A stretch of 64,000 nucleotides of DNA from Yuukianura sp. NJ FZ-2021 (Eukaryota). Shown here piece after piece: positions 52,132 to 60,890 of the stretch. The notes below the pieces were generated by a model that did not search any database, was not told the origin of the DNA, and saw only the letters and a program-made list of their open reading frames with translations. The position numbers were made by a program, and so were the translations under genes. The stretch spans positions 5,828,001 through 5,892,000 of the forward strand of contig CM102283.1 in assembly GCA_046563655.1 (NCBI GenBank), in the 5' to 3' direction. How positions within the stretch are numbered: position 1 is the first letter of the stretch; every line of letters begins with the position of its first letter.

Positions 52132-54705
52132 ATGTCCGCCTACGGATTCCATAAGCGAATGCCAATTTTGTTGCTAGTCGTTCTGCTGAGTCTGTGCCAT
52201 ACAAACGCCCGTTCGCCAGTTGATCGAGAATGTAATCAGATTGGGATTCTTCTGCGAAACAAGACGTTCACATATCCATGGTGGGATTATTCACTTGCAT
52301 TGGCATCTCCTTCAACTTCCGGTTGCCCTGTCAGGGGTAAGGCAGTGAAATGCTGCGCTTCGACTTTTGACACTCCAGTTCATCGACGTGAAATCAACAA
52401 TGCAGTGACCCACAAGTGGCTAGGGAGTAAGCTAACAGCAGCAAAGGAGGTTTTCAGTGAGCGAAAAAAGAAGTTTGACCTGACCTTCAAAGCATTATTA
52501 CTGAGAGCTCATACATCATTCCACGCCATGTTTGAGAGAACGTACGTACTACTTTTCAAAGGCATTGCATGGGTTTGTCAATTTACTAATTGAAGTTTTG
52601 TTGTTTAGATATGGGATGTTGTATATCCAACATGCGGATGTGTTCCACGCCCTCTTCAAGACCCTTGAAAAATACTACGAGGATGGAAGAGATCATTTGG
52701 AATCGAAGTTGAATGAGTTCTTTGCAATTTTAACTCGAAAGATGTTTGAAGTTCTAAATGCGCAGTACGACTTCACCGAGGCATACCTCTCTTGTGCCAC
52801 AATTGTCATAAGCGAAAAGCAAGGAAATGACCTTCATCGGCAAATCGTGTCCAGCCTTCGGAGATCATTTGTCGCTACAAGAGCCTTTGCCCAAGGCCTT
52901 ATTGAAGCTGAGCGAGTAATTTCTAATGTCAACAAGGTATTGAGTCACACTTCTATTTAGTGCAAGTCAATGTACTATTTATTTAGTATAACGGAATTTT
53001 TTATTTCCAAATTGTAAACACTTTATGGTATTTTGCAGATTCAGCTGAACACGTCAGACTGTTTGATTCCTATGGCACAGATGCTTACATGCCCAATTTG
53101 CGTAGAAAGTCGAGCTTACAAGCCGTGTTTGCCTTTATGCACTGCCATTACTGTGAAGTGTCTCAGCCCGACGTTTCATCTGACAAAACCTTGGAATGAA
53201 TTCGCAAAAGCCTTAGAAGACTTAACCGATCGCTTAATGGGTCCCTACAATGTCGAAGCCGTGGTGGAGCCTATTCATATTAAAATCTCCGAAGCCATTA
53301 TGAACTTCCAAGAAAGTGGAGCCGATTTGAGCCAAGCCGTATTTTCGAAGTGTGGCAAACCAACGTTGAAGAACCGAAAGTAAGACTTGGTATCTGATTA
53401 ATCCATTTCAACATTTGTTCTATTTAAATCCAAGCACAAATCTACAAACGGTGCAGAAGTGTTTCTCAATAAGTACGTGTGTATACTTTCAGTGTCAACA
53501 AACGGGAAGCATTACCAGAACCCTTGGCTCAGGCTTCGTCATCGTCTCGCAGAGCGCAAGAAAAAGATGATTCACAACCTAACAAATCCTTGGAAAAGCT
53601 TCTGAAGGATACCAAGGGCAAAGTGAAAAAGTCCAAAGATCTTTGGAACGTGCTGCCAAAGCAAGTTTGTAATGCAATCTCAAAAGACTACTCATCACAA
53701 CAATGCTGGAATGGTACATTTCTTGTAAAACTTGACAAGCGAGGAAGCAATTCCAAGGATACTGATGGGAACGATGATGGTACTTCGCTCGTATTGGACA
53801 CGCAGCCACAAGGAAGGCCAATTTCATTGATAACTGAACAAATTATGATTCTCCAACTCATCACAGATAAATTGAAAACTGCATTTAATGGTGGCGATAT
53901 TCAGTGGATCCAGGAAATTGGTAATCAGAAACATATTACCCACAATTTTCACACCAACAAAAACCATTCTAACGCTAGTTCTTCCCGCAAACTGAAGTTG
54001 TGTTATAATGATTTTTTAACACTTTTAGATTCTGATGATGAGTTTGGGAGTGGCATGGGCATGGGATCTGGGTCGGGTGAAATCCCAACTGACTTGGAAG
54101 ATACTGACGACGATGACCCTGGAGGAGAAGTTCACAAAGGAATTCCTCCTCTTTCCACGGATCTCAATTTGGGCACACGAAAAGTAGTTACGACTCCAGA
54201 GAAACCATTCAATCCGTTTCCAAGTTTCGAGGAGCCTACACGGTTACCATCTCCACCGCATTTCAATAGGCCGATAGTTCCGAGTAGTACTGACGACGAG
54301 GAGGAGGAGGAGGACGAAGACGACGACACGTCCAACCTCAATTTGAATTCATACAGCAATAAAAATCGACATGGCAGCACTAATAGTGGAGGTACTAATG
54401 ACTTTGGAGTCGACTTTCCTCCGATTTCTAACACTCCGCCGCGATTTCCAATCCCAACAGTTTCACCACCAGTACAGTTACCAACTACAACCACGGTAGC
54501 ACCCACTACTACCCGAAGTACAACAACAACGAGGAAACCAATTACTATCGTAACATTGAAACCACGGAAGGATCCACCTCCTGTCGTCACTACTGCGCCT
54601 GTTCCTCCGAAACAGGAAATCCCCGGTGCCAAGACGGTAGCCGTTGTTAACGTTTTTACTCCAGTCATAATGTCCATGTTCAAGAAACTGTTCAACATTG
54701 GCTGA
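52132..54705 (+). CDS. Glypican (dally-like / GPC1-2-4-6 type heparan sulfate proteoglycan)
   Basis: Signal peptide, conserved Cys pattern (C..C..CC, CPIC..KPCLPLC..C, CGKP, CWNG), RSFVATRAFAQGL, GPYNVEAVVEPIHIKISEAIMNFQE, acidic-flanked GSG glycosaminoglycan sites and a hydrophobic C-terminus. Confidence 0.92.
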
Positions 54706-55792
54706 GAGAGTCATCTGAGAGCTCGAACTGGTAAGGTACTTGAAGGACTATGATTTGATTTAGTCTTATTCTTTGACGAACAAATTACAAAGTTAGTAAG
54801 ATTGACGTTAATTTAAGGACAATCTAATTTGTTAATTGTGCCATAGCGCTCTCTAAATCCAGTGTCCAACTTATAGTAAGCTGGACACGGTTTCTTACTC
54901 AGGTATAACTGTACATCCATTGACAAGGGTACTTAACTACTTAATTTAGCTAATGATTAGTCTATTAGTAAGTGCTATCAACTTAGTCGTTGAATGTCAT
55001 TCAAACGTCAAAATCAAAACCAGAATCACTTTGGTTGCCATCTTTTTTGTTACTACTTAACTTATACCATGTTCAACATGGTAGTTAACCTAATATGAGA
55101 ACTGACTTGTTGTAAAGCTTTTAGTGCAGCTAGTGCTGCTTTAACTACTAGAAAGTCTGACCTAACGATGACTGAAGCAGCAATTTTGTATTTAAAAGCA
55201 TTTCAGACAATTTAGAAGCAAGTGAAAATTTAGTTTCTAGTTTGCCATTCTCAAAGTGTTCGCATCTCATACTCAAATTAACATAAATTTTGTCTCCTGT
55301 GAAAACTTTATGCAGCTTTGTCGATCTTGTGTAACTTGTGGCAGCTATTTATTAGACGTTTAGGAGTTATTACTAATATGTAGAGCCAAAACGGATGTTG
55401 TTGGTGAATAAACTTGAGTTAATCATTTTTTTAATTCTTTTTTAATTCATAAGATTCGATTTCGCTGACCATTTTGTCAAAAATTTTATTTGGAATTCGC
55501 ATCATGCGATTCGTACGTTGCGAAGCCCGGCAAAGTCGCTTTAACATTTCAACAAAAAATCTTGTCTCCATCCCCCAGCCAGTTCCTCGCTCCGCCGACA
55601 ACTCGTGTTTTGTGCACTGAAAAGAAAATAACATTATATGCTTACACTACTGCTGCTCATCGTTTTTGAGGTAACATTAGTAATTTGTGAATTATTTTTC
55701 GTCCATTTACGTTTTTTTAGTGTTACTGAAAAACTGAAATATCAATTTTATGAATCTTAGGCAGCAGGTTGAGCTTGGACTGACGCTAAAGT

Positions 55793-56866
55793 ATGGGCGA
55801 CATCGGGGATAACGATATTGCGGGAGAAAATTTTTCTGATTGGTTAGGAGATCGGTTGAAGGAATTGAAGATAGACGAAACGGTATTTTCTCCTTACATC
55901 ACAAGCATCCTTGAAGGGGACGAAGACCAAGAAGAAATAGTGGAGTCACTGGATGGAATTCTTGGTGAACTCGGGGTAAGTAATAATGTTAAGCAATAAA
56001 AATTATTGGCTAGGATGGCTATTTCTATCGTTCCCTGTCGTCTGCTTATCTTTCAGTTTTGGTACCGAAAACGAGTGATTTATAGCAGCGAGAGTGCTGA
56101 ATTTTTGGTCTAACATTCTAATATTAGGTCATGACAGGAAGAGAATTTAATTTGCAATGCCAGAAGCTGAAGAAGTATGGATTTTTAGAATGGGATCGTA
56201 GCCGAGTCACTTCGTGATGAAATCTTATCAAAATGGAACCAATTCCTTGCCATATCAAAAAAGATCTCGACTTCAACAGAAGGCAGAGGTGACCAACTCA
56301 ACGAAATCCTACGAAAGGCTACTGAATCTGCTGAATCCGGAGCTTCCAAAAACAAAACCGAACCCGATCCGAAGTTAAGAGCAGCTATTTTATCCGCCGT
56401 TGCTCAAGCGAATGTAAAGCCATAACCACATATAATACACTTCATTTCTTGCCATCATAGTAGTCTAACTTGAATCTTCTTTTGATCAGTCTAGTGAATC
56501 TGAAGATGAGCAGACCGGCCCATCCTCGTCCAACGTTCGCAAAAAGAAAACTGGAGATTCCGACCATTTAGCCGAGTTTGGCCGAAATACAAACGTAGAG
56601 AAGGTTTTAGCTGAACAACGGGAACAAAAAGACAAAGCACGAGCTGAAAGCGCTAAAAAGAAAGAACGTGACAAGGAAGACAGGTAAAACAGGACAAGTT
56701 TCTTGACATTTGAAGACACTTTTTACTAGAAGTTTACTTTTTACTTTGCTTCAGTTCTGACTTATCGATTCGTTTTATTGGTTTTAGGGCCAAACAGAAA
56801 GCAGCAGCGGAGGAACGTAAAGACAAAGCCAAGAAGAAAGCCACCAAGGTTGAACGGAAGAGATGA
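55793..56866 (+). CDS. CCDC43: Coiled-coil domain-containing protein 43 (4 exons)
   Basis: FSDWLGDRLKELKIDETVFSPYITSILE (PWI-like N-terminus), RNTNVEKV and a K/E/R-rich C-terminus ending KATKVERKR*. Confidence 0.85.
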
Positions 56867-57078
56867 TTTTTATTGTGGCTGAATAAGAAGCGTTATAATT
56901 GCACTCATACACTCGGAATAATTAAGTCTACACACCTCAAGATAACCATGGAAAGATACACTTTGAAAACACTGAAACATTTGGAGTAAAGTAAGATGTC
57001 ATTTCTACTAATTCGTCAATGACTTCCTCTTGAGTTACTGGTCAATATTGACCATTGACCAATTTTGATATCTTAACC

Positions 57079-58068
57079 TTACGGATACTCTTCTGCCACT
57101 GTTCGATAGATAAAGGAAACTGCTTTCTGTGGATATGGAAATGTCGTTTTCGGACCGGGCTTCGGTTTCCCGCTTTTCTTCAACCCCAAATAGTATCCAT
57201 GGTGGGCATAATCCAGACTCAGGAGGCTGAGATACGCCTGCCCAGAGCCCAGTTTCGTTTCGACCCATATTGTACCTCGGTTTTGTGCCAATGGCTGTCC
57301 ATGAACTCGTCCTATGTTAACGATGTGAAACTATGACGTCCAACGTTTCACGGATAACTTTAAAACTCCTACCTTTAGGTGTCATGGTCACGTAGAATCC
57401 AGTGTGCGTACCTACATAATTTTCCAAGAATTAAGTTCAAATCCTCCCATTTCGAAATCAAGGTCAAAGGACAGGATTTAAACGAAATGGCTAATGTCAA
57501 GTCAATAATGAATGCACGCTACCCCGAATTCTCATCTGTCCATCCAGTCCTGCCGCTTCGAACTCCAATAACCCTGAAATGACAAAAGCGTTCTTCCGGT
57601 ATTAACTAATCAAGTAATTAATTACATACTTTTCCTGCTTCGGAATACTGAATCACTTACCGTATTTATTTTTTGGAGATTTAGTTCCGCGGACTACTCC
57701 ATTTGGGAATACCTGCAAGTCATTCCAAATACTGGAAAGTACACGCCTCAAATACTTTTAACTTCAATTTTAATTTTAGCAGCTCTAACAAAAACGCTTA
57801 CTGCCAAATCGTATCCCGTGGCACACCAAAGTCGTCGAATGCGCTTGCGCCGCCCTGGTTCAGTCGGATTCACTTGATTGGTCGGTTTTCCTTCTGAAGC
57901 ACTTCCATTATTCGGCCTATCTCGTTCTTCCCTACTGTGTCCACTTCCACCTCCAGGTTTCGGCTGGTCACTCGGTTCCTGTTCCATTTCCTCTTCAGTG
58001 GGTTTCGGTGCTGGAGGGGCATATTTGTCATCCATTGGTCCACAGTCACAACAGTCACCACAACACAT
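57079..58068 (-). CDS. Fibroblast growth factor, FGF1/2-like, no signal peptide (exons 58068-57802, 57712-57661, 57573-57523, 57411-57373, 57311-57079; 213 aa)
   Basis: All splice phases are compatible. The spliced core reads RRLWCATGYDLAVFPNGVVRGTKSPKNKYGLLEFEAAGLDGQMRIRGTHTGFYVTMTPKGRVHG...YAHHGYYLGLKKSGKPKPGPKTTFPYPQKAVSF, matching the FGF beta-trefoil pattern including the basic heparin-binding loop. Confidence 0.9.
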
Positions 58069-58657
58069 CCTTCCACAACAGACGCACCCAACTACAAATA
58101 GAAGCCACCCAGTACAAGTCAACCTGTCGCCACAATCTGGGGACAGCCACAACCAAACACCAGTTGGAAAATATCAGGACATCTAACTACCGCGGTGCAC
58201 CGCTGTTCCTTTTCCGGAAGCCCCACGACTACTACTGAACTCCAAGTCCAAATCCCAGCAGGCGACTGACTCAAAATGTCAAAGTCTGCGCAGCGGGTGT
58301 CGTCGTTTTGCAGGGGGAGGAGAGGCGTCGTTGCGTTTTTACGAGGAACAGAAATGATTATTTGCGATGATAAGGAAATGATGTCTATGTTGGAAATATT
58401 GGGCAGCATATTCGCACTCTTCATCCTTCATCTGAGCTTGTTTTGACTATTTTGGACTCCTGGCTAAAATTAGAAGACAAGTCGACTTCATTTCAAACGA
58501 GGAGTAGTCGAGGTGTTCGGAGCAGCCAAAGATCACGGTGTCAGGAAGATCATTCAAGACAGAAGCGGAACTCAATTCAACGGAAGAACAAGTAGAGCCA
58601 CACGAGTAGTCGAGAGACTCAATAAACAAAAATAGTAACTGCTACTCACTCCCCCTC

Positions 58658-58778
58658 TTTTCTAAACACCAACTCCCCTTTAGATTCTAAACGGGAGTTG
58701 GTGTTTAGAACAAGGTTTTTCTAAATTCTAAACTTTAGGATTTAGAAAAACCTTGTTCTAAACACTGGGTTTAGAAAA
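58658..58778. repeat. Overlapping perfect inverted repeats
   Basis: 58660-58677 pairs with 58693-58710 (18 bp) and 58701-58725 pairs with 58741-58765 (25 bp). Built from TTCTAAA/TTTAGAA units. Confidence 0.85.
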
Positions 58779-59008
58779 TGATGAAGATCCCTCGCCATTG
58801 ACTCTTCTACTAGCAAGTGTCTGAACTGAAAGGCAAGTAACCAAGTTGACATTGCCAAGGAAGTCCAAAAGCAGGAAGTTTAGTAGCACACACGAGCCCT
58901 GTTTATTTCAAAAAGGAAAATAACCTGTGACCTCCAAACAAATCATTTTTTTATATTTATTAATTTTTATAGAAACTGATTCAAAGGATTAGCCCGGTGT
59001 CTCCACTT

Positions 59009-60890
<1,882 letters not shown>

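Follow-up and report, generated by a model that had tools for sequence, protein, structure and literature searches.

A signal-less springtail FGF carries a conserved N-terminal cysteine cluster that may act as an S-acyl membrane anchor

The window analysed here, a stretch of 64,000 nucleotides, contains an FGF gene whose product lacks a signal peptide and starts with MCCGDCCDCG, raising the question of what these cysteines are for. The preliminary description of the locus had noted this start, a second in-frame AUG at 58035, a linker, the basic patch RRKRIRR and an FGF core, and our gene model confirms all of them. The gene occupies positions 58068-57079 of the minus strand and, in a splice-site model, encodes a 213-residue product in five coding exons. 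Its parts, and a conserved element upstream of it, are listed below; P0001 is an annotated FGF of Allacma fusca, and L004, L005 and L006 are orthologous metagenome loci.

58410-58479, minus strand: short non-coding element, ~340-410 nt upstream of the ATG, conserved in L004 (about 2519-2609)
57802-58068, minus strand: coding part of exon 1, residues 1-89, with the Cys cluster, linker, basic patch and core strands 1-2; aligns with P0001 and L004-L006
58042-58068, minus strand: start codon and Cys cluster (Cys 2, 3, 6, 7, 9), the proposed S-acylation anchor; A at -3 of the ATG
58033-58035, minus strand: second in-frame ATG (Met12), with C at -3 and G at +4; not conserved
57853-58041, minus strand: acidic/Pro-rich linker, residues 10-72 (63 residues); poorly conserved, disordered in the model of an orthologue
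57832-57852, minus strand: basic patch, residues 73-79, running into core strand 1; kept in springtail orthologues
57713-57801, minus strand: intron 1, 89 nt, phase 0; absent from L004-L006
57661-57712, minus strand: exon 2, from the splice-site model
57574-57660, minus strand: intron 2, 87 nt, phase 1; at the identical position in L004, L005 and L006
57523-57573, minus strand: exon 3, from the splice-site model
57412-57522, minus strand: intron 3, 111 nt, phase 1; absent from L004-L006
57373-57411, minus strand: exon 4, from the splice-site model
57312-57372, minus strand: intron 4, 61 nt, phase 1; absent from L004-L006
57079-57311, minus strand: exon 5; encodes the core's second half, with the basic heparin/PI(4,5)P2-type site, and contains the stop codon

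The model is based on splice consensus and end-to-end alignment with orthologues rather than on RNA. All four introns are of the GT-AG type (89, 87, 111 and 61 nt; phases 0, 1, 1 and 1), and the product aligns from end to end with P0001, reaching 74% identity in the last exon. As Allacma fusca is a springtail, this match makes a springtail the most likely source of the window. Its cysteines lie at residues 2, 3, 6, 7, 9 and 82. On both strands of the window, only 1 of 1250 ATG-initiated, stop-free 10-codon stretches has at least four Cys, and it is the FGF start. With ATG1 taken as the start, hydropathy averaged over 10 residues peaks at 0.66 within residues 1-40; there is no hydrophobic leader, in agreement with the earlier statement that a signal peptide is lacking. 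The gene is intact and, from the sequence, apparently single-copy: protein searches of its own genome (98.7 Mb, 22 contigs) with P0001 and P0010 returned this locus alone, and one with an FGF8-like query returned no match, with the proviso that intron-split genes can escape such searches.

The four introns had been singled out earlier as an unusual feature of the core. Their number stands, but as a family trait they are rejected, as the three orthologous loci all lack three of the four: there is one intron each in L004 and L005 and there are two in L006, and intron 2, which we take to be the ancestral first FGF intron, is the only one common to all four genes. The EF1-alpha introns of L004 appear at the window positions, as far as covered, and the L004 FGF still lacks introns 1, 3 and 4. 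Because L004, with its apparently matching EF1-alpha introns, has none of them, the three are most simply explained as recent gains; they look like local gains and carry no evident functional meaning. Direct repeats of 3-4 nt flank these lineage-specific introns (57713-57801, 57412-57522 and 57312-57372) across their ends, as at proto-splice sites, and no clear copies of them were seen elsewhere in the window.

The FGF gene begins 940 nt past the stop codon of a same-strand EF1-alpha gene, and it is convergent with a small conserved gene. This neighbourhood recurs in the three metagenome loci, with both neighbours in L004 and L005 and with the downstream neighbour in L006, where the upstream sequence is too short. 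The EF1-alpha gene (59009-60782, minus strand) encodes 462 residues with five coding introns; it lies directly upstream of the FGF gene, and the linkage is kept in L004 and L005. At the 3' end of the EF1-alpha gene, an RNA-type contig matches as far as 58892; the 3' UTR is partly conserved in L004, and the one RNA run covered EF1-alpha pieces alone. The small intron-split gene (55790-56880, plus strand), which converges on the FGF gene, is conserved in L004-L006; it had no Pfam match in three exon frames and presumably resembles CCDC43. Further away lies a glypican gene (PF01153; about 53000-54705, plus strand) with a long Pro/Thr/acidic insert, which ends about 2.4 kb from the FGF gene; glypicans are FGF co-receptors.

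Upstream of the start codon, positions 58458-58410 match L004 at 76% over 55 columns (local BLAST, E 7e-6), with a weak adjacent 17-nt match (E 0.16). From its sequence, this element is a candidate promoter, splice acceptor or upstream-ORF region. It contains a pair of upstream ATGs; an adjoining pyrimidine-rich AG resembles a splice acceptor or a MEF2-type site. Both the window and L004 have several upstream ORFs within the 400 nt before the FGF start. Between the EF1-alpha and FGF genes, at ~58700-58780, a short stretch resembling an inverted repeat, recognised by eye, is possibly the remnant of a small transposon.

Next to the cysteines, the FGF core is conventional in fold. The last exon scores 20.6 bits against the Pfam FGF profile (PF00167), below the 24-bit cut-off as a fragment; the orthologue P0001 carries PF00167, and the window model aligns across its whole core, so the profile check upholds the FGF assignment. 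In the AlphaFold model of P0001, residues 1-70 are disordered (pLDDT 52-60) and a complete FGF fold follows at pLDDT above 90. Foldseek matched this model to FGF1, FGF2 and FGF9 with TM scores of 0.75-0.95 (rmsd about 1.1-1.5 Å for most matches) in a PDB rich in FGF1 mutants, and the PDB sequence E-values are alike for FGF9 (3e-16) and FGF1 (2e-14). Among these sequence matches, an FGF7/1 chimera and FGF9 are also basic at the position of the basic patch. Aligned with an FGF2-like row, the core has basic residues at all three positions of the PI(4,5)P2 cluster and no Cys at the positions of FGF2 C77 and C95, residue 82 being its sole Cys. The last loop is nearer to FGF1/2-like rows than to FGF9- or FGF8-like rows in the alignment. 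We take the Glu, Tyr and Asn positions and the C-terminal Pro of the core to be receptor-contact residues. The Glu and Tyr positions are kept; in springtail-type cores the C-terminal Pro is replaced, and the Asn of Tyr-Asn-Thr-Tyr is replaced by Leu, Met or His in all five of them and is also replaced in double-FGF proteins. This Asn contacts the receptor linker and is likewise changed in FGF11-14, and its replacement may be read as a weak hint of altered receptor use.

The subfamily is less firmly placed than the fold. In one tree, FGF9/3/10-like rows stood apart from FGF1/2-like and invertebrate rows (100/97) with FGF8-like rows inside; a tree without the latter did not settle this node, and the deeper branching is poorly resolved. 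The FGF types of the vertebrate rows are those that we presume from sequence features. The earlier assignment to the FGF1/2 type agrees with the missing signal peptide, the FGF1/2-like C-terminal segment and the basic site, but the trees do not prove it. Arthropod genes from Tribolium, Strigamia, louse and tick are placed as FGF1/2-type in the available parts of PMC3420111 and PMC4244043, whose supplementary trees bear on the subfamily, and this placement, together with the motifs, makes FGF1/2 membership plausible.

The frame above the Cys ATG is closed by a stop 13, 1 and 4 codons upstream in L004, L005 and L006, respectively; in the window, the frame above ATG1 is open for 35 codons and has no ATG in it. 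A purine occupies -3 in all four Cys ATGs (window, L004, L005 and L006), and the annotated Allacma protein begins at the equivalent Met. The first ATG is thus the likely start as judged by comparison.

The preliminary description had left open whether the cysteine string occurs in other arthropod FGF1/2 proteins. We find a cluster that is conserved far more widely than had been guessed, from springtails to copepods. All ten springtail-type orthologues (P0001, P0003-P0006, P0103, P0117 and L004-L006; P0063 duplicates L005 and is not counted) begin with Met-Cys and have a second Cys within ten residues, as does the window protein. Six of the ten are first-exon fragments, and the full-length P0001 query may favour fragments that begin like it; P0006 is counted from its second Met only, its predicted ORF having a Leu-rich 16-residue extension. 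The linkers of the same orthologues align poorly.

We then looked at the wider family among the best 150 of 233 matches to a protein search of 1.84 billion representatives. A first quick tree, built from 117 cores, separated 44 rows from the chordate-like FGFs (SH-aLRT 98), and an inner group of 22 rows (93) included the window protein. At least two Cys in residues 1-20 occurred in 11/17 inner rows and 9/61 outgroup rows (p 1e-4), counts that drop 5 inner fragments and 12 of 73 outgroup rows; without rows bearing a signal-like leader, the figures were 11/15 versus 3/42 (Fisher p 2e-6). The Fisher tests treat relatives as independent, which makes these p-values too small. Cysteine made up 35 of 300 N-terminal residues, compared with 7 of 961 linker residues. 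A second tree, in which 37 of those 44 rows were combined with further proteins and 19 outgroups, recovered the clade at 95/96 with two long-branch FGF8-like rows inside it and at SH-aLRT 95 without them. In this wider clade, 17/22 members have at least two Cys in residues 1-20, against 3/18 neighbouring invertebrate-type FGFs, after the removal of 4 truncated rows. P0082, a protein with a signal-like leader and without Cys, was in the clade in the first tree and was later excluded as a long branch; including it gives 17/23. The five exceptions are one protein with Met-Gly and Cys5, one with its cluster slightly further in, one with a signal-like leader and two with nothing of the kind.

Within the clade, the number of cysteines (2 to 5) and their spacing vary freely. 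Cys is residue 2 in 8/22 members, five of them springtail-type, and Gly is residue 2, as annotated, in 1/22. Several N-termini run on into a hydrophobic or aromatic stretch; the springtail clusters are followed by acidic residues and have no basic or hydrophobic helper segment. The sequences point to two Cys as the conserved minimum, and the string of five is an expansion particular to this lineage. Around the start codon, a 7-nt TG-rich word occurs three times, once upstream of the ATG, and a local TG-rich duplication has probably enlarged the string to five. Members named by source are Allacma, an Orchesella cincta fragment and the copepod Tigriopus californicus (P0008), and we infer that the clade is pancrustacean; an aphid FGF (P0158) has no cluster and falls outside. 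P0154, the sister of P0008, has at its start a Cys pattern nearly identical to that of the window protein.

Some neighbours of these sequences have features of their own. P0008, P0009, P0154, P0155 and P0156 have two tandem FGF domains behind a Cys-rich N-terminus, and in the tree the first domains group apart from the second. The tandem double-FGF and springtail proteins have a two-residue insertion in the last loop in common, and the trees do not make them sisters. Neighbouring FGFs without a cluster (P0052, P0057, P0066, P0089, P0018, P0039, P0047 and P0012) often have Ser/Asp/Glu-rich starts. An Atlas search with P0001 returned FGF clusters by features and nothing informative on the N-terminus, and one with exon 1 yielded no usable match.

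What holds such a cluster in place? We favour, with a probability of roughly 55%, a model in which S-acylation anchors the FGF1/2-like protein on the cytosolic face of a membrane, from which it is exported or acts inside the cell. S-acylation would best explain the cluster because, in a cytosolic protein, variably spaced cysteines are conserved at the very end of a tail that is disordered and evolves fast. As in GAP-43/SH4-like proteins, at least two Cys lie near the cytosolic N-terminus in a disordered segment. Free Cys spacing, together with the hydrophobic or aromatic continuations, speaks more for lipid anchors than for a fixed motif of the metal or disulfide type, at least as far as sequence can tell. 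The clade member with Met-Gly and Cys5 is of a familiar kind, in that Met-Gly with a nearby Cys is the myristoyl-plus-palmitoyl pattern.

In this model, translation would start at the first ATG, a step well supported by comparison, and the protein would be made in the cytosol because it has no signal peptide, as is visible in its sequence. Cytosolic zDHHC enzymes would then S-acylate at least two N-terminal Cys and so direct the protein to the cytosolic face of the Golgi or plasma membrane, the tether running through the disordered linker of about 60 residues. Together, such an anchor and the basic site, which is conserved, would enrich the FGF core at the inner leaflet; FGF2 achieves this with C77, C95 and a basic cluster, and both of these Cys are absent here. 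From there, the protein might leave the cell by an unconventional route and serve as a short-range FGFR ligand, either tethered or gated by de-acylation (about 60% of the scenario), or it might act inside the cell (about 40%). Export of an acylated protein has a precedent: in the available portion of PMC8182054, N-terminal acylation drives the unconventional export of HASPB and PfAK2, and in that of PMC13243786, FGF2 export needs C77, C95 and the PI(4,5)P2 cluster, with C95 disulfide dimers driving pore formation. Some of the sequences appear to count against an anchor, namely P0023 with its signal-like leader, the five clade members without a two-Cys start and the springtail clusters without a basic or hydrophobic helper segment. 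Moreover, acylation that holds the protein on the cytosolic side might work against its export. More tentatively, and in our view somewhat doubtfully, reversible N-terminal S-acylation might replace the signal peptide and the FGF2 disulfide Cys in targeting and export throughout an old arthropod FGF clade, comprising at least springtails, copepods and the tandem double-FGFs.

The same absence of Cys at the C77 and C95 positions lends itself to another explanation, in which the N-terminal Cys form intermolecular disulfides or bind Cu/Zn and the resulting oligomers translocate directly across the membrane, replacing the surface Cys of FGF2 (C95) and FGF1. FGF1 forms a copper-dependent dimer, which speaks for this possibility. 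So does the role of C95 disulfide dimers in FGF2 pore formation (PMC13243786, in the part available). However, a metal site fits poorly with Cys that vary freely in number (2 to 5) and spacing, the Cys sit far from the core at the end of a disordered 60-residue linker, and one member has the Met-Gly and Cys5 typical of dual acylation. We consider oligomerisation unlikely, though it survives better than the other alternatives.

Leaky scanning had been proposed in the preliminary description as the source of two functional isoforms, one acylated and tethered, the other soluble or nuclear and begun at Met12. Met12 does follow in frame right behind the cluster, with G at +4 where ATG1 has T, and a Met at 36-42 in three orthologues could yield a Cys-free form. 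Comparison nevertheless makes the proposal improbable: none of the ten orthologues has a Met near position 12, where the closest, L004, has Leu, six of the ten have no internal Met before the core, and ATG1 has the stronger -3 context, a purine against the C of ATG2. Given Met12 in 0/10 orthologues, we reject the second AUG as a conserved switch; it would be a species-specific extra, giving at most a minor unanchored form. The alternative starts of FGF2 differ in kind, adding upstream sequence rather than removing an anchor.

A still smaller chance attaches to Met-Cys as an oxygen-sensing Cys/Arg N-degron (ADO, ATE1), by which the FGF would be degraded at normal oxygen levels and spared in hypoxia. 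All 11 springtail-type sequences have Cys as residue 2 (P0006 from its second Met), and a soil animal presumably meets hypoxia. But Cys2 is found in 8/22 clade members only, five of them springtail-type, and a degron needs one Cys rather than a cluster. Moreover, the residues after Met-Cys (Cys, Gly, Asp) are of the disfavoured kind, basic or aromatic residues being preferred there in the available text of PMC11199558 and PMC12377780. As a clade-wide role, the degron is rejected on the Cys2 count and the disfavoured following residues.

Marginally less probable again is a true start further upstream, with a spliced exon adding a leader or signal peptide for classical secretion. Positions 58136 and 58091 are good acceptor-like sites, upstream ATGs can on paper be joined in frame and without a stop in six ways, and the frame is open for the 35 codons above ATG1; among relatives, P0006 has its Leu-rich 16-residue in-frame extension and P0023 and P0082 have signal-like leaders. 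Yet four of the six joined leaders are weakly hydrophobic (2.04), and the other two joins begin at 58946, which is covered by the EF1-alpha RNA contig. The upstream ORFs of the window and L004 have no evident likeness, and the orthologues have in-frame stops just upstream. Joins from the ATGs at 58424 and 58409 via a weak donor at 58270, again on paper only, would give leaders of 54-74 residues that bury the Cys cluster. Pfam had no match for exon 1, the upstream-extended frame or a 101-residue upstream ORF. That the Cys are a functionless product of the TG-rich repeat at the start codon is very improbable and, for the two-Cys minimum, largely refuted: the three copies of the 7-nt word, one upstream of the ATG, do lie in the region, but at least two Cys persist from springtails to copepods while the linkers diverge, and the orthologues use different Cys codons.

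How would an S-acyl-anchored FGF compare with known systems? In our trees, the window protein groups with invertebrate FGFs, apart from the chordate groups. With vertebrate FGF1 and FGF2, it has in common the missing signal peptide, the fold and the basic PI(4,5)P2/heparin residues. It differs from FGF2 in lacking Cys at C77 and C95 and in having a 72-residue extension with the Cys cluster, and from both in the replaced Asn of Tyr-Asn-Thr-Tyr, a change common to springtail-type cores. FGF11-14 have, to our knowledge, no Cys-cluster anchor; none of them was among the best 60 PDB sequence matches or the Foldseek matches listed, and we recognised none in the tree rows. They are likewise signal-less, and their N-terminal tail sets location and release (PMC11335280, available part). 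The arthropod FGF1/2-type ligands (Tribolium Tc-FGF1a/b, Strigamia fgf1, louse and tick) are also signal-less and have an FGF1/2-like C-terminal segment in what is available of PMC3420111 and PMC4244043; these portions mention no N-terminal Cys cluster in them, and the main text of PMC3420111 has 0 occurrences of the word 'cysteine'. The available part of that paper also describes two Daphnia FGF genes that could not be placed. The Cys cluster, which marks the clade, could help to sort such unplaced crustacean FGFs and points to the copepod tandem double-FGFs.

Among the literature matches listed, seen in part, we found no S-acylated FGF ligand and no Cys-rich FGF N-terminus, though the Tribolium FGF1 papers may describe N-termini; the palmitoylation matches concerned FGFR3, FRS2 or Sprouty. 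The earlier suggestion that a lipid-tethered FGF is undescribed holds for S-acylation among these matches, but not for lipid tethers at large, as Branchless is GPI-anchored (PMC9203819, in the part available). Leishmania HASPB and Plasmodium AK2 are leaderless like the window protein, and an acylated N-terminus targets them to and across the plasma membrane; according to the available text of PMC8182054, however, they need N-myristoylation at Gly2, which 1/22 clade members have, and their folds are unrelated. How a leaderless FGF crosses the membrane and how far it travels are open questions that have mostly been studied on FGF1 and FGF2. With its conserved Cys-rich tip and no export Cys of the FGF2 kind, a natural FGF such as this one would make it inexpensive to test whether acylation drives or gates export or retains the FGF inside the cell. 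If the anchor is real and serves in export, this would be an animal growth factor released by an acylation-dependent route. As far as the available part of PMC9203819 describes them, Drosophila Branchless (GPI) and Pyramus (transmembrane) likewise stay attached to the membrane of the cell that makes them. Branchless carries a signal peptide and is fixed to the outer face by GPI at its C-terminus, whereas the putative anchor of the window FGF is N-terminal, would be attached in the cytosol and would be reversible. Membrane-tethered FGFs are thus already known, and the putative cytosolic S-acyl anchor would be new, adding a third mode of FGF tethering to GPI and the transmembrane helix.
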